Shown piece after piece: positions 52,509-63,074 of a stretch of 64,000 bases of DNA. This DNA comes from a virus (Duplodnaviria > Caudoviricetes). The notes beneath the pieces are model-generated. The model was not told the origin of the DNA and searched no databases. It worked only from the letters and a program-made list of their open reading frames with translations. Location of the stretch: the IMG/VR virus record IMGVR_UViG_3300037047_000246; one strand, given 5' to 3'. The position numbers and the translations under genes are program-made. Within the stretch, counting starts at the first letter, position 1. Every line of letters begins with the position of its first letter.

Positions 52509-54863
52509 ATGGCGCCCATAAGTTACAAAATCGCAGAAAATCTGTACCTCGTCGAGCAGGTAGTTTGCAACAAAGCCCCTCAGGCAAAGCCAGCAGACGT
52601 TCCGACCAATCACATCGTCGTCATCGACTGCTCCGGGAGCATGTCCGGGGACTTGCCCAAGATCAGGGAGCAGCTCAAGCGCAAGATGCCCAAGCTGCTT
52701 GGCGAAAAGGACACACTGTCTGTGGTCTGGTTCTCCGGCCGAGGTCAGTTCGGCACTCTGCTGGAGGCCGAGCCAGTTTCGACTCTTGCCGACCTGCAGC
52801 AGGTCAATCAAGCAATCGACAGGTGGCTGAGGCCTGTGTGTCTCACCGGCTTCAAAGAGCCCTTGGAAGAGGTATCCCGGCTTGTCGAGAGGATCGCTAA
52901 GAAGCACCCTGGCGCTTTCTCCATGTTCTTTATGTCCGATGGGTGCGACAACTGCTGGTCGCGCCAAGACATCATGCAAGCGGCGCAGCAGGCCGCCGGC
53001 GGTCTGGCTGCTGCCACCTTTGTCGAGTACGGATATTATGCGGACCGGCCGCTGCTGGCTGCCATGGCGGAGAAGTCTTCCGGCGCGCTGATATTTTCGG
53101 AGGATTTTGACCGGTACGCGCCGCAGTTCGAGTCGGCCATGCAGAAGCGCCCGATTGGTGCCAAGCGCATCGAGGTGGCGGTGGCCGGAAATCCTGTCGG
53201 AGGGTTTGCGTTCGCTTTGTCTGGCGCAGACCTTCTCACTTTCGCAGTCGAAGACGGCAAAGCGTCGGTGCCCGAGGGCACGAGCACTGTCGCGTACCTG
53301 TCCTCCTCCGGTGTCGGAGTGGTGGCCAAGGACCAGCTGACCATGTCGGCGAAGGATGCCGCCCGTGGCGACAAAGGCGACGGCACGCTGGCACTAGCTT
53401 ACGCGGCCGCGTCGCTTTATGCTGTGCGCATGCGTGCCGACGTGGTGCTCCCAGTGCTCAAGAGCTTGGGCGACGTCGCATTCATCGAGCAGTTCGCCAA
53501 CTGCTTCGGTCGCCAAAAGTATTCGGAGTTCACGGATGCGACCAAAGCGGCGGCGGCGGAAAAAGATCGGCGCTGGACTCTGGGTTACGATCCGGACCGC
53601 GTGCCGCCGGAAAATGCCTTCACGGTGCTTGATCTGCTGCAGATGCTGCAGTCGGACGAGGGCAACCGGGTGCTGATGGAGCATCCGAGCTTCAAGTACA
53701 GCGCCATCGGCCGAGGCCGCATCGACGCCTCCGAGCAGCTGACGCCTGAAGAGCAAGCCGAGGTGGAGCGGCTCACCGCGCAAATCGCTGCAGCTGGCAA
53801 GAACACCAAAAAGGTGGCGGAGCTCACAGCCAGGATAGCATCTATTGCTGCCAACAAGCCGAAGGCTTTGGAGTTTGAGGCCGATCCGGCTCCGGACGGT
53901 TACCCTATTTCGAGTCTGACGTTCAACGAGGACCGACCCAACGTCTCCATTCTGGTTAGAAAGCCTGGGACTGTGGATTTGTCGAGTCGCGTGGCTGAAG
54001 AGCTGGACGGGCAGTTCCCGGGCCATTTCCCAACGTTTATCTGGCGCAACTACGCCATCATCAAAGACGGCTTGGTGAACGTCGACGAGCTGCCAGTGCG
54101 CGTGACGTACAGCACCGAAAAAATTTTGCAACAGTACGAGTCCGATGGCACTCTGCCGCGCGCCGCTTTCGACGACATCGGTTGCGGCGTAGTTGTGTTC
54201 CACCTGCGCAAGCTGCCGGTCGTCAACCGCCAGATGGTGCGATCGGTGTCGGCGGCAAAGTTTTTTGCCACAAAGTACGAGCTCGTCCAGGCCCAGGCTG
54301 CCCAAAAGGTGTTCAACGGCTTCACCAAGGAGCTGCTGCTTGCCAAGAAGGCAGAAGGCATCGCAGCGCAGTACGGAGACGAGGCCGCCGCTTGGCTCAA
54401 GGAGCAGGGCATCAGCGACGGCGGATTCTCGCCCAAGACGGTGCAGGCAGAAGCGACTGACTTTTATATGGGCAAATGCCTGAAGGTGTCTCTCAAAGGC
54501 TTGTCTAGCTTGCCTTCGCTCAAGGACCTGCGCGAGCAAATCAAGAAGGGCAAACTCAACGCGGCCGGCAAGCTCATGAAGCCGCATTTCGACCGGGTTG
54601 AGGCTTTCTTGGCCAGCGACATCTCCCAGTCAGCAAACAGGGACGCGGTGCTCGAAACGTGGCTTGAAGTGCAGGCCAACGCAGCCCGGGACAGGGCCCG
54701 GGGTCTGATCTACCAGATCGCGCAGACCACGTTCTGCTTGGTGGTGGGGCAAGTCTGGTTTTCAGAATTCTCGTCGCTCGACGAGAACTCCATGGCCATC
54801 GACACCGATGAAGGGCGCGTCGAATGCAAGGCGGAGCTTTTGGAAACGCGCATCAAGTTGTGA
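52509..54863 (+). CDS. von Willebrand factor A (VWA) domain protein
   Basis: MIDAS IVVIDCSGSM; FFMSDG; ATFVEYGYY. Confidence 0.8.
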   Translation: MAPISYKIAENLYLVEQVVCNKAPQAKPADVPTNHIVVIDCSGSMSGDLPKIREQLKRKMPKLLGEKDTLSVVWFSGRGQFGTLLEAEPVSTLADLQQVNQAIDRWLRPVCLTGFKEPLEEVSRLVERIAKKHPGAFSMFFMSDGCDNCWSRQDIMQAAQQAAGGLAAATFVEYGYYADRPLLAAMAEKSSGALIFSEDFDRYAPQFESAMQKRPIGAKRIEVAVAGNPVGGFAFALSGADLLTFAVEDGKASVPEGTSTVAYLSSSGVGVVAKDQLTMSAKDAARGDKGDGTLALAYAAASLYAVRMRADVVLPVLKSLGDVAFIEQFANCFGRQKYSEFTDATKAAAAEKDRRWTLGYDPDRVPPENAFTVLDLLQMLQSDEGNRVLMEHPSFKYSAIGRGRIDASEQLTPEEQAEVERLTAQIAAAGKNTKKVAELTARIASIAANKPKALEFEADPAPDGYPISSLTFNEDRPNVSILVRKPGTVDLSSRVAEELDGQFPGHFPTFIWRNYAIIKDGLVNVDELPVRVTYSTEKILQQYESDGTLPRAAFDDIGCGVVVFHLRKLPVVNRQMVRSVSAAKFFATKYELVQAQAAQKVFNGFTKELLLAKKAEGIAAQYGDEAAAWLKEQGISDGGFSPKTVQAEATDFYMGKCLKVSLKGLSSLPSLKDLREQIKKGKLNAAGKLMKPHFDRVEAFLASDISQSANRDAVLETWLEVQANAARDRARGLIYQIAQTTFCLVVGQVWFSEFSSLDENSMAIDTDEGRVECKAELLETRIKL

Positions 54864-55123
54864 TGCAACTTGTAGTGCCTCACCACATAGAGTTTCAACA
54901 GCATCCGGACGTGCTTGACATTCGCGTAATCAGGTACAGAGTTTTGTGCCGCAGGTGCGGATGCTGTTGTGAAGCTTCCCTGGACACATATTCGTACCTC
55001 AGCACTGGTGCGGGCGACAACAGGATACTGAGGCAGCTCATGCAGGAGTGGGAGATCGCGTTCCCCGCAGATTGCGACGAAGCTGCCTCTCTGAACCTAA
55101 TCAGGTCTGTGCAAGAAACCTAA
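54863..55123 (+). CDS. Small Zn-finger-like protein ending CDEAASLNLIRSVQET
   Basis: TGATG coupling; CRRCG; paralog of the next gene. Confidence 0.6.
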   Translation: MQLVVPHHIEFQQHPDVLDIRVIRYRVLCRRCGCCCEASLDTYSYLSTGAGDNRILRQLMQEWEIAFPADCDEAASLNLIRSVQET

Positions 55124-55137
55124 GGGTCCGGCCAAGC

Positions 55138-55398
55138 ATGACTGCTCACCAAGTCCAGTTCCACGCCTCGTCGGATGTTGCGACGAGCTTGCGGATGGGA
55201 TATGCTCTGCGGTGCCGCAGATGCGGCTCCAACGTCGCGGCATGGCTCGACATGAGGCATTTCAGGAACGTTCTCGGCACCAAAAGTCTCGAAGAGCGGA
55301 TGCACGTCAAGCTCGAGCTGGAGTGGACGCACCAAGTGCCTCATGACTGCGACGAAGCCATGGCGATCAACACGGTGCGCATGGTGCAAGAGTCGTGA
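55138..55398 (+). CDS. Small Zn-finger-like protein ending CDEAMAINTVRMVQES
   Basis: CRRCG...W..Q.PHDCDEA. Confidence 0.6.
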   Translation: MTAHQVQFHASSDVATSLRMGYALRCRRCGSNVAAWLDMRHFRNVLGTKSLEERMHVKLELEWTHQVPHDCDEAMAINTVRMVQES

Positions 55399-55441
55399 GT
55401 CTCGCGCATTTTGTGGTTCGAATTCCGGCGCTTGGGCTACC

Positions 55442-55470
55442 TTGACTCGACCCGGACGAAGTGTTATTTT
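55442..55470 (+). promoter_or_regulatory. Putative sigma70 promoter
   Basis: TTGACT-17 nt-TATTTT with an extended TG. Confidence 0.5.
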
Positions 55471-55587
55471 TGAATTATGCACTCGCTTAGATCTGACTGG
55501 AACTGCCACTTGTAACTACCTCGCGGTCCCCCGTCGCCGTCGCTGCTACCAACACCAGAGCAAGTGACGATTGAGACGGAGGACATC

Positions 55588-55953
55588 ATGAAGCAGTCAG
55601 TTGTAAGCATCAAGCATTGGATTAAGGCCAGCATGGCCGAATCGCTCGAGATCCGCAAGCAGATACGCGCATCTGAGGGCGACGAACGCTCCCGCCTCTG
55701 GGGATGTAAGCGCAGCCTTGGTGACGACACTCGCCATATGCTGCTTGCCTACGCGTTTCTGCGCGGCAGGCTGTACTCGGCGACAGAGTGGAAGTGCGCC
55801 CCCAATAACAAACCCCGCCCCTCCTTCGTGCAGCATTTCCTTGAGGTCTCTTTGCCCAAGGGAGAGCCTTTGCCGGCCGAGTGGGATAAAGATAGCATCA
55901 AGGCGTGGCTGGCCCGCCCGATGGCCTCCGAGGCCAAGGAGCAGGCAGCATGA
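55588..55953 (+). CDS. Hypothetical protein
   Basis: GGAGG RBS; RHMLLAYAFLRGR. Confidence 0.7.
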   Translation: MKQSVVSIKHWIKASMAESLEIRKQIRASEGDERSRLWGCKRSLGDDTRHMLLAYAFLRGRLYSATEWKCAPNNKPRPSFVQHFLEVSLPKGEPLPAEWDKDSIKAWLARPMASEAKEQAA

Positions 55954-56396
55954 GGACGATTGTCAAGACCGAGCTTGTGCCAGCCGAGGAGGTCACTTAC
56001 ACGACGTACGGCTGCGACCTGTGCGACTTCACGTCGGACGATGAAGACAACATCAAGCTGCACCACGGCAAGGAGCATGCGTGCAAGCGCAAGATGGAAG
56101 TGGACGGTGTCGAACTGTATTGGTTCGACACGGAGGAGGATGCCCAGACCTGGATCGAGCAGGATGAGTACGGCGCCGATGAGCGCAAGGTGCGTTGGTC
56201 TGACCCCGGATGGTACACCGCCTCGTGGTCGACCGGGCCGTGCAGGCGCGGCTGCTGTACGCGAAGCTGCCGATCGCTCGAATCTGTGGGCTCCTACCTG
56301 TCTGAACTGGAGTACGCGGCCGAGCAGGCCGAACAGCAGGCTGACAAGAAGCGCCGCCTGGCTCAGGCGATTCGCCAGGAGGTTGGCGATGGCTGA
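55950..56396 (+). CDS. Hypothetical protein with C2H2-like finger
   Basis: CDLCDF...HHGKEH; ATGA coupling. Confidence 0.65.
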   Translation: MRTIVKTELVPAEEVTYTTYGCDLCDFTSDDEDNIKLHHGKEHACKRKMEVDGVELYWFDTEEDAQTWIEQDEYGADERKVRWSDPGWYTASWSTGPCRRGCCTRSCRSLESVGSYLSELEYAAEQAEQQADKKRRLAQAIRQEVGDG

Positions 56397-56715
56397 GAAG
56401 CTCTTTCTGGTCACTCGCGCAGATCTGCGGCCGGGTCAGCAGGCGGTTCAGGCTGCCCACGCAGCACACCAGTTTTGTGTCGATTTCCCAACTGAGTTCG
56501 CGGCCTGGTTTGAACGTTCCAACACTTTGGCAATGCTCACTGTGCCCGACGAACAGGCGCTGCGGCAGTTGGCTGACCTGGCAGATGACTGGGACTTGAA
56601 GTTGTCGATGTTTCGCGAGCCTGACCTTGGCAACGCTTTGACTGCTTTGGCGCTCGAGCCAGGTTCAGGCACCAGAAGGCTGTGCCGCAATCTGCCGCTA
56701 GCTCTCGGCGGCTGA
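56389..56715 (+). CDS. Peptidyl-tRNA hydrolase PTH2-like protein
   Basis: LVTRADL..GQQAVQAAHA; FREPDLGNALTALAL; LPL. Confidence 0.8.
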   Translation: MAEKLFLVTRADLRPGQQAVQAAHAAHQFCVDFPTEFAAWFERSNTLAMLTVPDEQALRQLADLADDWDLKLSMFREPDLGNALTALALEPGSGTRRLCRNLPLALGG

Positions 56716-56788
56716 CTACCTCGGAAATTTAGCTGCCTGGAGCGTAGCGGCGGCCAGTGGAAGCCATCCGCGCGAAAGGTATCAAGAA

Positions 56789-57022
56789 GTGACATTCCCG
56801 GTGACCGAATCAGACCTGTGGAGCGTATACCCACGGGCGACCCACTGCTGGAGGCTCGTATCCACTGACGCGGACCGGGTCGAAGTGTACGAATGCGATC
56901 GGTGCTCGGCCAGGAAGTTCATCTACAACGACGTGAACGTTCAAGTGTATGACGCGGCTGGCCGAGAAGCGTCCATGGTCGAGTGCGAATACTACGGGAT
57001 AGCGAACGTTATGGAAGAGTGA
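56789..57022 (+). CDS. Small Zn-finger-like protein ending CEYYGIANVMEE
   Basis: HCW...CDRC; shares the C-terminal tag. Confidence 0.55.
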   Translation: MTFPVTESDLWSVYPRATHCWRLVSTDADRVEVYECDRCSARKFIYNDVNVQVYDAAGREASMVECEYYGIANVMEE

Positions 57023-57069
57023 CTCTCGGCGCATTTGTCGCGCAGTTTGCGAACAAGGATAGCACACAA

Positions 57070-57159
57070 GCCCTCGTAGCCCAGCGGTCGAAGGCAGGCG
57101 GCTTTAAACCGTCCACGAGCGAGAGCTCGTCACCGGGGGTTCGACTCCCTCCGAGGGCA
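57070..57159 (+). tRNA. tRNA with UUA anticodon (ochre suppressor), long variable arm, Tyr-like
   Basis: Acceptor GCCCTCG/CGAGGGC with discriminator A; anticodon stem GGCGG/CCGTC, loop CT-TTA-AA; variable stem ACGAGC-GAGA-GCTCGT; T arm GGGGG-TTCGACT-CCCTC; CCA not encoded. Confidence 0.9.
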
Positions 57160-57160
57160 C

Positions 57161-57721
57161 TTACTGCGATCGTGACAGCTTGGCAGCTATTTTTTCGAGC
57201 TGAAGCTGGAAATTTTGCAAAACAAACGGCAGCGCTATGGAAACCCTGCCGTCTCCACGGTCCGCGCCGTATATTGTCAGATCGAACGCTCCCCAAGACA
57301 CTGGCGCAGGCAGCGGTCCTGCCGTTTTGGCACCAGGCATGTACGACAGCGTCACGTGCGGCTTGAACTCAGGCCATTTGGCGCTGTACGACACTCCTGA
57401 GAGGTCGAGCTCCTCTTTCAGGTCTCGCTCCAACTGCATGAGCTCAGGGGACTGCACCGGCAGGATAACTGGGGTGCCGTGGTGGCCCGGGTCGAACGAA
57501 GCCACTTCGCTGCATGTTAGCGTGAACGGCGACGTTCGGCGCGTGACCTTGTGGCAAGCCACCATTGCAGCCGCAAGCTGCTCCATCGATGCTCCGTCGC
57601 CGAGGTACACCACAGTCACGTGCATTTCAGACGCTGCTTGAACGTCGCCCGGCAGCGCGCCTGACATTTGCGCCAGAAGTCTGCCGACTTCCTGCGGGAC
57701 TCGCAGAGCTATCATGGCCAT
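57161..57721 (-). CDS. 2H phosphoesterase (LigT / 2'-5' RNA ligase / Acb1-like fold)
   Basis: Two HxT motifs, MHVTV and PHVTL. Confidence 0.85.
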   Translation of the reverse strand: MAMIALRVPQEVGRLLAQMSGALPGDVQAASEMHVTVVYLGDGASMEQLAAAMVACHKVTRRTSPFTLTCSEVASFDPGHHGTPVILPVQSPELMQLERDLKEELDLSGVSYSAKWPEFKPHVTLSYMPGAKTAGPLPAPVSWGAFDLTIYGADRGDGRVSIALPFVLQNFQLQLEKIAAKLSRSQ

Positions 57722-57753
57722 AAGGCCTGCAATCGACAAAACGTTTATCGAGC

Positions 57754-58650
57754 ATGCAGCGTGTGAACGATTTGTATTTGGGCCGCAACGCGCTTGGGCA
57801 CGCCGCATATGCCGGGCGCAATTTCGCTGTCGGAGACCTCGTGGCGCAGTTCTCTGGCGACATCTGCTCAGCTGAGGATCTGCCGGAAATATCGTCCCCG
57901 GAGGACGACAGGTACATGCAGGTGGGCAGAAGCGTCTACATGGGCCCTTCTGGCTGGTTCGACGATTACTGCAACCACTCGTGCGATCCGAACGCCGGCG
58001 TGGCGGACGTCGACGGGTCCATGTGGCTGATTGCCATTCGGCCGATTGAGGCCGGAGATGAAATCGTGTGGGACTACTCCACCACGATGGACGAAGACGA
58101 CTGGGAGATGGATTGCCGGTGCGGCAGCCCTGCGTGCAGAGGCCGAATCCGAGACTTCAAGCACCTGGAGCTCGGCTTGCAGCTCAAGTACGTCAGCCTA
58201 GGCATAGTGCCGGACTTTGTCCTGCAATCAGTGTCGCCTGACCTGCTGTCCTCGGCTCTCCGGTTCATGTCCGGGCAAGAGCCGGACGCGCCTTTGCTGG
58301 AGAAGCTTGCGCTGTCCATAGACGGCCCAAGCAAAAAGAAAAGCAAGGGCAAAGGGGGCAAGTCGCCTCCGACTGTGACTCTGCTCGACGTTGAAATGAC
58401 CGAGGACGGCGGCGTCAAACAGAGCTGGGGCGTGTACGCTGAGGGGCAGAAAGTTGGCGTACACTCGGTGACCGACGCCGAGGGGGACACGAAGATACTG
58501 GGCAACGATCTGGACCTTGGCGAAGGCGGATTGACCGCGCAGCAAGCAGTTGCCCACATCCTGCAGGGTGCCCATCCGAGGTACTATCCGAAGCCTGGGA
58601 AAACTGTGGTGCTGGACAGCGCATTCGTGCACAGCGCCTCTCGGAGCTGA
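57754..58650 (+). CDS. SET-domain protein lysine methyltransferase fused to an unknown C-terminal domain (possible start GTG 57763)
   Basis: YCNHSCDPN; AIRPIEAGDEIVWDY; post-SET CRCGSPACRG. Confidence 0.88.
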   Translation: MQRVNDLYLGRNALGHAAYAGRNFAVGDLVAQFSGDICSAEDLPEISSPEDDRYMQVGRSVYMGPSGWFDDYCNHSCDPNAGVADVDGSMWLIAIRPIEAGDEIVWDYSTTMDEDDWEMDCRCGSPACRGRIRDFKHLELGLQLKYVSLGIVPDFVLQSVSPDLLSSALRFMSGQEPDAPLLEKLALSIDGPSKKKSKGKGGKSPPTVTLLDVEMTEDGGVKQSWGVYAEGQKVGVHSVTDAEGDTKILGNDLDLGEGGLTAQQAVAHILQGAHPRYYPKPGKTVVLDSAFVHSASRS

Positions 58651-58992: not shown

Positions 58993-59409
58993 ATGGACAA
59001 CATGACTCGGCGACAGCGGTCCAGGCACATGTCTCAGATCAAGGTGTCTGGCACCAGACCTGAACGGGTGCTCAGGCAAATGCTGAAGCAGCTCACCGAG
59101 TCCAGGATGCTGTACAACGTGCGCGGCATGCCCGGCAAGCCAGACGTCGTGGTACCTGCCCTCAAGCTTGCCGTGTTTGTCGACGGATGCTTTTGGCACG
59201 GATGTCCGGAGCACGGCAAAATGCCTAAAAGCCACAAAGAGTACTGGGTGCCTAAAATAGTCGGCAACATGATAAGAGACGAGGACAACGTTGTGGAGTT
59301 GGAAGGCCTTGGATGGACCGTATGGAGGGTATGGGAGCACGACTTGCAGCCCGGCTCTGCATTCAACACCAAGCGCAGGTTGGCTCGCAGGTTGGCTCGA
59401 CTGATTTGA
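58993..59409 (+). CDS. vsr: Very short patch repair endonuclease
   Basis: QRSRHMSQIK...TRPE; LPGKPD-like MPGKPDVV; FVDGCFWHGC; YWVPKI..N..RD; GWTVWRVWE. Confidence 0.92.
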   Translation: MDNMTRRQRSRHMSQIKVSGTRPERVLRQMLKQLTESRMLYNVRGMPGKPDVVVPALKLAVFVDGCFWHGCPEHGKMPKSHKEYWVPKIVGNMIRDEDNVVELEGLGWTVWRVWEHDLQPGSAFNTKRRLARRLARLI

Positions 59410-60979: not shown

Positions 60980-62824
60980 TTACTCGGTCGTCCATTCAGA
61001 AGCGTCCAGTTCGCCCACGCCAGACTCTGGGCTGCCCAGCACCAGGTCTTCCTCTTTCGCCATTCTGCATTCCTCGTCTGTGATGGACCCGCGCCGAAGC
61101 ATCAGGTCCAGGATCAGGTTGACGTGGTTGCGCTTGGCTTCATGCATTTTGCCTGATGCGCCAAAGTAGGAGGCTCTCGGCCTGGGCAGAATAGACGCCA
61201 GGAACACTGACTGGGCAAGAGACAGTCGAGAAGGGTCTGTGCCGAAGTAGTGATTGGCCGCTTGCCCGATGCCCCAGATATCTGGGCCGAACTCCACGGC
61301 GCTCAGGTACGCTTCCAGTATCCTGTCCTTGGTCATGCGCTGCTCTATCGCCATGACCAGAAAGAACTCTTGGACTTTGCGAGACGCTGTTTTGTCCCTG
61401 CTCAAGAACATGTTTTTGGCCAGCTGCATGGTGATCGTGCTGGCCCCACGAACGAACTTTCTGTCTTTGACATTATCCCGGATGGAGTTTCGCACAGCTT
61501 CCACGTCGATGCCTTTGTGGCCCCAGAATCCGGGGTCTTCTGTGGTCACCACGGCTTTCGCCATGTACGGGGAGACGTCGGCCAAAGACACTTTGGCTGG
61601 CCATCCGGCAGCGGCTGACTTGCCTGTGCGGCGGCCTGTGGAGGAGTAGATCGTGCGCGCAAAAGGTTTGCCGGACAGGGCTGCAGACACTTTGTCCGGC
61701 AGCTCCAGCACCTTGCATTTGTTGACGAGCTCGAAGAAAGCCTCAGGCGTTTTTCCGCTTTGCTCGCTCACTTTCGCCGCGCTTCGCATCTCCCCTCCCA
61801 GGCGCATGCCTACAAGCTCTTGCTTCATCGAGTCCGGCACAGCTTGCAGCACGTCTGAACACGGCGTCCAGCCCATGCTGGCTTCCAGCTTCCAGCTCTC
61901 TGCGTCTCTCGACGCCAGCATTTTCAGCGGCACCTGCCCCGCAGTCACGTCTGCCGACCACGACCAGCGGCGGGCAGACTGCACCAGCATCTCTCCGCTC
62001 ACGCAGGTCTCAGGCAGCGTCACAGAGTCTTCTGCCACGGCCCCGTGCTGGCCTGTGGCAGACTTGAACTGGGCCTGGACCGAGATTCGGGCGCCGCCTT
62101 CGCCGGGCGCCGCCGTCACCGCTGCCTGCGCGCCGGCTACGGACAGACCCCAAGGCAAGTCTGCTCTGGCCGCCGCAGCCGAGAACGACACCGAGCCGCC
62201 TTGAGACTGCACGTCCATCACCTCGAGTTCGTGCAGCCGGATGCTGTGGCCCCGGGCAAACAAAATGACTTCTGGCGACTTGGCTTCAGTCTTCCCTGAG
62301 CCTTTGATCACGCGCATGGAGTGGCTCTTTGCCTGACCCCATTTGGACTGCACGATCAGACCCTCCAGCAGCACTTCGACCGAGGTGTCCAGGTTCGCGG
62401 TCACGCAGTCCGCTTCCACCTTTGTGCCGCTGCCGTCGATATCCTCCCACAGCAGCGGCACATTCTTTATTCGAATGCGCATTGATCGGCCAGACGCCCC
62501 AGCCTCGCTCTTGGCTTTCGGCCACCGGCCGCTCATGGTGATTTTGCCGCCTTCAGCGGTCACCTGCTTCGGGGAGAGCTTGTAGTCGAGTTCGATCAAA
62601 GCGAAGCTCAGCACAACGTGCCGAGCCTTGTCTTTGGACGTCATGTCGAGACCGCTCAGCCGAACCCCGCTTCTGGTCAAGGACACCTGTTGCACGGCGG
62701 CGTCCCATCCCCTGGCCTCGAGCTCGCCAATCAGCGCTCTCTTCGCCAAGACAGGAGCGGACAGGTATGCTGCCGCCCCGAGTGCAAAGACAGACAGGGC
62801 GGCCGCTTTTGCGCGTTTTCGCAT
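60980..62824 (-). CDS. Membrane-anchored peptidoglycan transglycosylase (GT51) without transpeptidase
   Basis: N-terminal TM helix; EDPGFWGHKG; GASTITMQLAKN; RKVQE; KDRILEAYL. Confidence 0.88.
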   Translation of the reverse strand: MRKRAKAAALSVFALGAAAYLSAPVLAKRALIGELEARGWDAAVQQVSLTRSGVRLSGLDMTSKDKARHVVLSFALIELDYKLSPKQVTAEGGKITMSGRWPKAKSEAGASGRSMRIRIKNVPLLWEDIDGSGTKVEADCVTANLDTSVEVLLEGLIVQSKWGQAKSHSMRVIKGSGKTEAKSPEVILFARGHSIRLHELEVMDVQSQGGSVSFSAAAARADLPWGLSVAGAQAAVTAAPGEGGARISVQAQFKSATGQHGAVAEDSVTLPETCVSGEMLVQSARRWSWSADVTAGQVPLKMLASRDAESWKLEASMGWTPCSDVLQAVPDSMKQELVGMRLGGEMRSAAKVSEQSGKTPEAFFELVNKCKVLELPDKVSAALSGKPFARTIYSSTGRRTGKSAAAGWPAKVSLADVSPYMAKAVVTTEDPGFWGHKGIDVEAVRNSIRDNVKDRKFVRGASTITMQLAKNMFLSRDKTASRKVQEFFLVMAIEQRMTKDRILEAYLSAVEFGPDIWGIGQAANHYFGTDPSRLSLAQSVFLASILPRPRASYFGASGKMHEAKRNHVNLILDLMLRRGSITDEECRMAKEEDLVLGSPESGVGELDASEWTTE

Positions 62825-62864
62825 CACAGATCTGACATTTGAGTTTTGATTACTTTCGTGCTGC

Positions 62865-63074
62865 ATGGCAATTAAATTCTTCAACATAGCTGCCCGCGTG
62901 GCGTGCTTGGCGCAGCCGCTGTCCGATCGTCCGGACTACGGTTCAAACACCAACCCGGCTCTGCCCCGCGGCGGCGAATGCGGATGCGGCGGGGAGTGCA
63001 AATGCGGGGGCGGAGAGTGCGAAGGCGGGTGCAAATGCTGCGCCAGCAAGACTTCGAAACCGCTGCCTACTTAA
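62865..63074 (+). CDS. Small protein with N-terminal IAARVA and metallothionein-like Cys/Gly cluster
   Basis: ECGCGGECKCGGGECEGGCKCC. Confidence 0.55.
   Translation: MAIKFFNIAARVACLAQPLSDRPDYGSNTNPALPRGGECGCGGECKCGGGECEGGCKCCASKTSKPLPT

Follow-up and report, generated by a model that had tools for sequence, protein, structure and literature searches.

A phage tRNA with the anticodon UUA and a candidate UAA gate in the leader of its own operon

A tRNA gene with the anticodon UUA occupies positions 57070–57159 (+ strand) of a 64,000-nucleotide (nt) stretch of viral DNA (Duplodnaviria; Caudoviricetes; IMG/VR record IMGVR_UViG_3300037047_000246), referred to below as the window. It is the last element of a same-strand unit made up of a leader, gene A, gene B, a peptidyl-tRNA hydrolase-like gene of the PTH2 family, a small gene and the tRNA itself. 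The leader contains an in-frame TAA followed by codons for the arrest motif RGPP. We judge it moderately likely that this is a functional UAA-reading phage tRNA and that it represents the ochre version of a widespread cassette of PTH2 and a stop-reading tRNA, with a matching stop gate in its own message. The gate stop and the anticodon co-vary, across TAA/UUA, TAG/CUA and TGA/UCA. Throughout, G000 denotes this phage genome, and the other G and L codes denote related genomes and fetched loci.

An initial annotation of the window, made from the sequence alone, had described a paired cloverleaf with the loop CU-UUA-AA at 57070–57159, and both the coordinates and the description were right. ARAGORN calls a single tRNA in the window, tRNA-Stop(tta) at 57070–57160, and Rfam matches RF00005 at 57070–57159 over the full model (1–71) with 50.6 bits against a gathering score of 29 (E = 6.8e-8). 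In the sequence and the ARAGORN cloverleaf, the acceptor stem has 7 base pairs (bp) with G1–C72, the discriminator is A73 at 57159, and CCA is not encoded. The D stem has 3 bp, the anticodon stem has 5 bp including one G–U, and the T stem, also of 5 bp with one G–U, closes the T loop TTCGACT. The anticodon loop, C-U-UUA-A-A (CTTTAAA, 57102–57108), is of the standard 7 nt with U33 and a purine at position 37, and the anticodon itself lies at 57104–57106. The long variable region spans 21 nt and forms a 6-bp stem capped by a GAGA loop. With this anticodon the tRNA most likely decodes UAA and probably also reads UAG by wobble.

The tRNA is real and under structural selection, anticodon included. 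A syntenic tRNA(UUA) is found in G001, a complete 376.7-kb relative with 51% GC for which 31% of the DNA is alignable at ~69% identity. Between the two tRNAs, 25 of 90 positions differ. Of the 26 stem pairs, 15 are unchanged, 3 carry a one-sided change, 7 have exchanged both bases without loss of pairing, and 1 no longer pairs, while the 7-nt anticodon loop is identical; it is these seven compensatory pairs and the identical loop that argue for selection. At 57104, where the initial annotation had raised a possible G>T error, the T is supported by an independent contig, by the contig of run X1 and by the G001 ortholog. The independent contig, 1000 bp from run X4 (not flagged as a source), covers 56251–57250 with zero differences, and run X1, a possible source, agrees with the tRNA sequence at a depth of ~39; both agreements are with assembled contigs rather than raw reads. 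Among capsid-anchored loci, the tRNA is present only in G001, since the other relatives hold the cassette in a tRNA array. When viral contigs were scanned for the anticodon arm with the anticodon left free, the matches were limited to unrelated Asn, Lys and Met tRNAs and chance hits; among 50,697 phage records, nucleotide searches matched neither the locus nor the tRNA.

The leader is a mini-ORF of ATG plus 11 codons (MHSLRSDWNCHL) that ends in TAA at 55513–55515 (55477–55515, + strand). Behind the stop and in the leader's frame, a segment encodes LPRGPP(S) (55516–55535, + strand), with RGPP at 55522–55533, 55 nt ahead of the ATG of gene A. The leader TAA is the sole TAA followed by RGPP in the entire G000 genome. 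RGPP is kept in every leader through differing synonymous codons (CGC, CGT or CGG, then GGT, GGA or GGC, then CCN), which argues for selection on the peptide behind the stop. According to PMC12992588, RGPP is the strongest and most robust of the arrest motifs and depends least on context, and no four-residue sequence is more strongly avoided in bacterial proteomes.

The arrest codons also have a predicted role in the RNA. The Shine–Dalgarno (SD) region of gene A (GACGGAGGAC, 55575–55584) and its ATG (55588–55590) form a unit at 55575–55590 on the + strand, and in the minimum-energy fold of the G000 leader the Gly-Pro-Pro codons at 55526–55535, which would act as an anti-SD, pair with this SD region. 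The same predicted pairing recurs in the TAA leader of G001 (z = −3.15), in a TAG leader (z = −3.86; z values for L229 and L232) and in a TGA leader. Gene A is in frame with the leader in G000 and, by tblastn and alignment, is conserved behind the leader in at least 12 loci. The post-stop frame enters gene A in three of the six leaders examined and does not in the other three, so an N-terminal extension of gene A is not the point of the arrangement.

The match between stop and anticodon was tallied for leaders that fit a strict definition: a stop, at most nine codons and then RGPP, within 1.3 kb upstream of PTH2. Such leaders occur in 17 loci. The stop is cognate in all 15 of those that hold a stop-reading tRNA, or in 16 of 16 with the separately fetched G004. 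The pairs are TAA/UUA in two cases (G000 and G001), TGA/UCA in two (G002 and G004) and TAG/CUA in 12. Chance occurrences of a stop and then RGPP are mostly TGA (23 TGA, 5 TAG and 1 TAA in G006), and the leaders therefore depart from background. Matches with RAPP or far upstream in L235/236, L272, L285, L291, L308, L320 and L322 were left out of the strict tally as chance. The third UUA locus, L262, is a linear record that begins at PTH2, so its leader is not recoverable.

A second architecture places the gate directly in PTH2. A direct gate is defined here as a PTH2 ORF in which an in-frame stop, 1–9 codons after the start codon, precedes the conserved first strand of the protein. Among 42 distinct PTH2 genes of this form, 38 have TAG with a CUA tRNA, one has TGA with a UCA tRNA, one has TAA, and two have TAG with no tRNA in the fetched stretch. 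The stop is cognate in 40 of the 40 informative genes, and there are no mismatches in either architecture. The TAA case is G011 (675,678 bp, ~25% GC at the locus; IMG/VR class provirus), in which the gated PTH2 lies at L265:3989-4003. Its UUA tRNA (L339:255-328) is ~19 kb away and is the only stop-reader among 40 ARAGORN-called tRNAs in the fetched regions. TAA is probably the commonest terminator in this AT-rich genome.

These loci were gathered by PTH2-anchored alignment searches of viral contigs, which gave 86 loci, or 81 after crude dereplication; a single-sequence PTH2 search returned zero loci, and alignment queries were needed. A stop-reading tRNA lies within 1.5 kb of PTH2 in 53 of the 81 (49 CUA, 3 UUA and 1 UCA), and across the tRNAs in PTH2-anchored loci the CUA anticodon accounts for 64 of 246. 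The association extends to cultured phages. A PTH2 homolog is present in ~200 cultured mycobacteriophages, and in Mycobacterium phage Dandelion (NC_023696.1) the GenBank annotation reads "peptidyl-tRNA hydrolase" and then "tRNA-Sup (cta)". Dandelion has no RGPP leader. As a single case, it has an SD-led two-codon mini-ORF (ATG TTT TAG; L335:2090-2135) just upstream of gene 163, which directly precedes the peptidyl-tRNA hydrolase and tRNA-Sup(cta); the stop of this mini-ORF matches the phage's suppressor, and the layout resembles the lambda bar minigenes. In three further loci, short tRNAs of 74–76 nt lie beside PTH2 in the suppressor's usual place (L235:4796-4869, L236:4795-4868, and L268, 13 nt after PTH2). 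They are class I-shaped, are called Leu(UAA) and have irregular anticodon stems.

Within G000, the PTH2 gene (56389–56715, + strand, 108 aa) matches PF01981 at 31.2 bits against a cut-off of 23 and is 71% identical in G001; as a search anchor it yielded 80 related loci. Its ORF is uninterrupted, and the tRNA starts 355 nt downstream on the same strand. Gene A (55588–55953, + strand, 121 aa) has no Pfam match (PHROGs were not searched) and no usable Atlas match. Its AlphaFold model (pLDDT 91.6) shows a long helical hairpin and a small helical domain, for which Foldseek found no match at E ≤ 0.001; a wide search gave generic helical hairpins with Z below 8, the tRNA-binding arms of SerRS and FemA/FemX being among these non-significant matches. 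Gene B (55905–56396, + strand, 163 aa, gene model) overlaps both gene A and PTH2; it has no family match and, by tblastn, no homolog in the other PTH2-anchored loci. The small gene (56789–57022, + strand, 77 aa, gene model) has a G001 homolog at 46% identity and ends in the C-terminal tag-like tail of the clade (…GIANVMEE). Toggling of this tag by read-through was considered and rejected, since TAA is the stop of 4 of the 39 genes with the tag and of 62 of the 423 without it (p = 0.63).

A promoter-like site (55442–55470, + strand; TTGACT, 17 nt, TATTTT, with TG) lies just upstream of the leader and is the only one that a consensus scan predicts in 54800–58000. Upstream of it is a predicted terminator-like hairpin (55394–55406). 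Between the leader and the tRNA, neither a terminator nor a second promoter is predicted, and the tRNA is probably made from the same transcript as the operon. Convergent with this unit is a 2H phosphoesterase gene of the LigT/Acb1-like type (57161–57721, − strand; PF13563, PF02834 and PF23474, and PHROG RNA ligase families), whose TAA stop is 1 nt from the tRNA 3′ end. It is adjacent to the tRNA in G001 as well, and in other relatives it is found elsewhere without the operon. Its membership in the cassette is uncertain, and the link to the tRNA may be coincidental.

The mechanism that these elements suggest is plausible and unproven. Without the tRNA, ribosomes would terminate at the leader UAA, and the Gly-Pro-Pro codons would stay paired with the SD of gene A. 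With charged tRNA(UUA), a fraction of the ribosomes would read through the UAA, arrest on RGPP and occupy the anti-SD, thereby freeing the SD. Translation of gene A would follow and would probably extend to the overlapping genes behind it, PTH2 among them. The tRNA would thus serve as a trans-acting key, timer or sensor of its own operon and not as a genome-recoding device. That the tRNA is charged and co-transcribed, that ribosomes read through and arrest, that the SD is unmasked and that the phage benefits are all points that we infer from sequence, and the anti-SD/SD pairing is a prediction of the fold. Charging and the insertion of an amino acid at UAA have indirect support in the covariation of the cis stop with the anticodon and in the peptide-level conservation of RGPP behind that stop. 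The initial annotation had proposed a role in regulated readthrough; what this proposal has gained is a specific and conserved target, the leader TAA, and the read-through itself stays presumptive. The two other roles offered there, sabotage of host termination and a decoy for tRNA-targeting defences, have gained no specific support. The coupling of PTH2 to the suppressor could possibly reflect recycling of peptidyl-tRNA after read-through or arrest, a timer, or a release-factor gauge.

Several points weigh against this mechanism. It is built from sequence and prediction, and arrest at RGPP would have to act on a nascent chain of ~19 residues. The G000 leader fold is no stabler than shuffled sequences (z = −0.88), with a z of −0.30 in L263, and because of this value for G000 the masking of the SD is argued from the recurrent pairing and not from energy. 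The raw covariation counts overstate their weight, since related phages are included and the independent switches away from CUA number ~5 (the G000/G001 clade, G011, the G002/G004 clade, L314 and L320). Metatranscriptome contigs touch the operon (56673–56898) and the phosphoesterase gene, and none covers the tRNA or the leader; these contigs may derive from DNA. A UAA reader should extend the products of the 66 TAA-ended phage genes as well as those of host genes, and one that also reads UAG should be costly with 66 TAA and 84 TAG terminators, yet there is no TAA depletion and there are no tandem back-up stops, so suppression must be weak or brief. Finally, a circuit that feeds only its own operon does not explain the phage's need for it.

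A broader proposition, which we hold tentatively and consider somewhat doubtful, is that the suppressor tRNAs of standard-code phages are one half of a self-contained lock-and-key switch, which many large phages would share; the range would run from 675-kb phages with 25% GC to mycobacteriophages in culture. The cognate stop would stand either at the start of PTH2 or before RGPP, where arrest would unmask the ribosome-binding site of the next gene, and the switch would report the termination capacity of the infected cell and tune the recycling of peptidyl-tRNA to it. Termination capacity would be what is reported because read-through competes with release factors (RFs): RF1 plus RF2 at UAA, RF1 at UAG and RF2 at UGA.

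The gated operon has to be weighed against other uses for such a tRNA. It could be a general low-level suppressor of UAA and UAG in host or phage messages, with the leader and PTH2 as no more than its sensor and safety partner, which would scale the recycling of peptidyl-tRNA to the extent of suppression; examples would be the extension of proteins, disturbed host termination, or the rescue of ribosomes at stops when release factors are limiting. We regard this as unlikely, if worth serious attention. Of the 81 loci, 53 link PTH2 to a stop-reading tRNA, and most of these lack an RGPP leader, which points to a reason for the pair beyond the leader. Pth deals with the peptidyl-tRNA that results from ribosome drop-off (PMC5852040), and a peptidyl-tRNA hydrolase would be needed when ribosomes overrun stops and drop off. 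An RF1-type factor that has the motifs PPT and GGQ is encoded in G000 as well, but its gene is absent from G001 and G004 and is therefore not an obligatory partner. In one G000 gene (335966-336407), a TAG takes the place of a Trp codon in G001, and UUA could read it by wobble. Against general suppression, neither a conserved read-through extension nor an in-frame TAA was found, and C-terminally tagged genes have no stop-codon bias. In the case of phage XacN1, the authors found nothing behind 18 amber stops (PMC5852040). General suppression is compatible with a gated operon rather than opposed to it. A use in anti-defense would have the tRNA replace or decoy the targets of anticodon nucleases together with the 2H phosphoesterase and PTH2, the phosphoesterase healing 2′,3′-cyclic ends or destroying immune signals in the manner of Acb1. 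The adjacency of a gene from the LigT, 2′-5′ RNA ligase and Acb1 families to the tRNA in both G000 and G001 speaks for this use, which is nonetheless improbable: a UUA anticodon substitutes for no sense tRNA, the 2H gene is unlinked to the cassette in other relatives, and a decoy leaves the matching stops in cis unexplained.

Phage suppressor tRNAs usually go with recoding (Borges et al. preprint), and an incipient or partial recoding, in which TAA is sense in a subset of genes such as the late genes, after the manner of TAG and TGA in recoded gut phages, would fit that pattern. It is largely refuted and, in our estimate, very improbable. A simple codon-usage gene caller with code 11 gives 462 genes in G000 at 90.5% coding density, ending in TGA (312), TAG (84) or TAA (66). 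These counts bear out across the genome the earlier statement that genes end in all three stops, and TAA is not depleted. For G000, G001 and G006, both the density and the summed coding score are highest under code 11 and drop when TAA, TAG or TGA is treated as sense; for TAA in G000 the density falls from 0.905 to 0.895, and the summed coding score falls as well. G006, a 407-kb relative with two CUA tRNAs, still terminates 117 of 461 genes with TAG, again with code 11 best. A six-frame tblastn protein comparison of G000 with G001, in which only alignments in the true coding frame were kept, found no in-frame TAA inside conserved genes, and where an alignment crosses a TAA, the cause is a gene boundary, an off-frame artefact or the anticodon of the tRNA itself on the opposite strand. 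In G000, the in-frame extensions after TAA are neither longer nor more coding-like than those after TAG or TGA. The claim that the genome is not globally recoded is thereby upheld, and surveys found no TAA-recoded jumbo phages (PMC13037316). One base separates UUA from sense anticodons, and an assembly error or a decaying pseudo-tRNA might be suspected for that reason. The identical contig from a run not flagged as a source, the ortholog with the same anticodon loop and seven compensatory pairs, and a leader stop that co-varies with the anticodon leave this explanation with hardly any probability at all.

As to the amino acid that the tRNA would carry, the initial annotation had taken the long variable arm, G1–C72 and A73 to fit a bacterial type II tRNA for Tyr or Leu; A73 is a major identity element of both. 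Comparison with relatives does not support this assignment. A long variable arm, G1–C72 and A73 are all present in G000 as claimed, but A73 is not conserved. The syntenic G001 ortholog and L262 have G73, and short-armed class I shapes are found in the PTH2-linked UUA tRNA of L262 and in the UUA tRNA elsewhere in G011. It is correct that the anticodon loop is one base from that of tRNA-Tyr, but tRNA-Lys is equally one base away. Compared arm by arm, the nearest backbones are phage tRNA-Arg (UCU/UCG), Asn and Lys and other phage suppressors, and the clade's own Tyr, Leu and Ser tRNAs are absent from the top matches. The clade's Gly(GCC), Gly(UCC) and Arg(CCU) tRNAs likewise have long variable arms with GNRA caps, so arm length is no guide to isotype there. 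These class I-anticodon tRNAs with long, GAAA-type-capped arms (G001:C1:139641-139722 and 151019-151102; L222:17396-17477, from G004) are unusual in their own right. A search for a phage aminoacyl-tRNA synthetase found none of PF00587, PF00749, PF00579 and PF00152, other synthetase families not having been searched. A further atypical tRNA, at L224:1332-1406 (LR745208.1), has an 8-nt anticodon loop, to which ARAGORN assigns a four-base anticodon (ttta), Lys/Stop ambiguous.

Laboratory ochre suppressors of E. coli with UUA anticodons (supC/supM from tRNA-Tyr, supG from tRNA-Lys and supB from tRNA-Gln) are single-step mutants of sense tRNAs. They share with the G000 tRNA the anticodon and the expectation that it reads both UAA and UAG and is tolerated only if weak. 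Unlike them, the G000 tRNA is a natural, conserved gene that is closest to phage suppressors and phage tRNA-Arg and not to a sense tRNA at one base's distance. A regulatory precedent is prfB, in which an in-frame UGA and a +1 frameshift sense RF2. There, as in the cassette, the decoding of an early stop sets expression; the cassette would differ in its dedicated tRNA and in-frame read-through. Regulatory arrest peptides with RAPP or RGPP motifs include ApdA, ApdP and ApcA and follow SecM-type logic (PMC7897499, PMC10951233, PMC12992588). Like them, the G000 leader has its motif, RGPP, in a short ORF that precedes a gene on the same strand, and the SD of that gene lies in a predicted helix that ribosome stalling would open. 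The leader differs from them in that the motif lies behind an in-frame stop, so that a suppressor tRNA would be needed. The leader is also only 12 codons long, with no signal peptide or hydrophobic segment, and the genes downstream are gene A and PTH2, not protein-localization factors.

Among phages, recoding of TAG to Gln ("code 15") and of TGA to Trp ("code 4") is known from crAss-like, Lak, Agate and Jade phages (Borges et al. 2021 preprint). In these, too, a phage tRNA overrides a stop and may time gene expression. G000 differs from them, being neither recoded nor depleted of TAA as a terminator, and no gated message other than that of the cassette was found in it. The recoding literature accounts for TAG and TGA suppressors only, and for jumbo phages there is no report of TAA recoding (PMC13037316). 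A closer counterpart is the Xanthomonas jumbo phage XacN1, which has two CUA tRNAs and a peptidyl-tRNA hydrolase (PMC5852040). XacN1 and the Bixzunavirus mycobacteriophages such as Dandelion share with G000 a stop-reading tRNA in a standard-code genome and a peptidyl-tRNA hydrolase gene. Theirs is an amber reader (CUA) with no target identified, whereas G000 has UUA, a long variable arm and a candidate target in cis, the TAA and then RGPP.

The stop-reading tRNAs of standard-code phages have long been noted without a target, and the message of the cassette itself provides a specific candidate that can be tested. The UAA version is rare, with 3 of the 53 PTH2-adjacent stop-reading tRNAs, and is the first found tied to a specific UAA. 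The cassette joins suppressor tRNAs and RGPP arrest peptides, a combination not described in the papers searched; that literature also gave no account of an arrest leader gated by a stop or of PTH2 paired with a suppressor. If the lock-and-key switch proves true, it would amount to a previously undescribed principle of regulation. The amber form is present in cultured mycobacteriophages, which makes it open to bench tests, and natural, mutually orthogonal pairs of tRNA and stop gate could serve as genetic switches.

G000 is a circular contig of 362,524 bp with a 29-bp end overlap and 57% GC, and contigs containing the G000 stretch originate from groundwater and coal metagenomes. It has four tRNAs, namely Leu-CAG, Gln-UUG, Met-CAU and the tRNA(UUA). 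It encodes a major head protein, and capsid identity is 75% with an uncultured 485-kb phage, 45% with Tunturiibacter phage Tunturi_5 and 36% with Bacillus phage G. The RF-like gene, of 181 aa with PPT and GGQ motifs and without an N-terminal domain, lies at L228:1450-1995 (− strand), which equals G000:C1:159997-160542; it is present in G000, G002 and G009 and is absent from G006 as well as from G001 and G004. At G000:C1:335966-336407, outside the window, the in-frame TAG of this small gene falls at the Trp (TGG) site of an intact, single-ORF G001 homolog, with conservation of both halves of the gene. A recent nonsense mutation, an erroneous base or reliance of the gene on tRNA(UUA) to read UAG by wobble could each account for it.

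Directly downstream of the cassette, the window holds three genes that are unusual for a phage: a SET-domain gene (57754–58650, + strand; PF00856), a Vsr-type mismatch endonuclease gene (58993–59409, + strand; PF03852) and a gene of 635 aa with a GT51 peptidoglycan transglycosylase domain (60980–62887, − strand; PF00912). In relatives with ~75% capsid identity, a gene for transfer-messenger RNA (tmRNA; tag ANDNSYASAAIAA) is found ~2 kb downstream of the capsid gene (L185:11998-12405, L190:4040-4451, L191:6255-6666 and L193:4772-5182).

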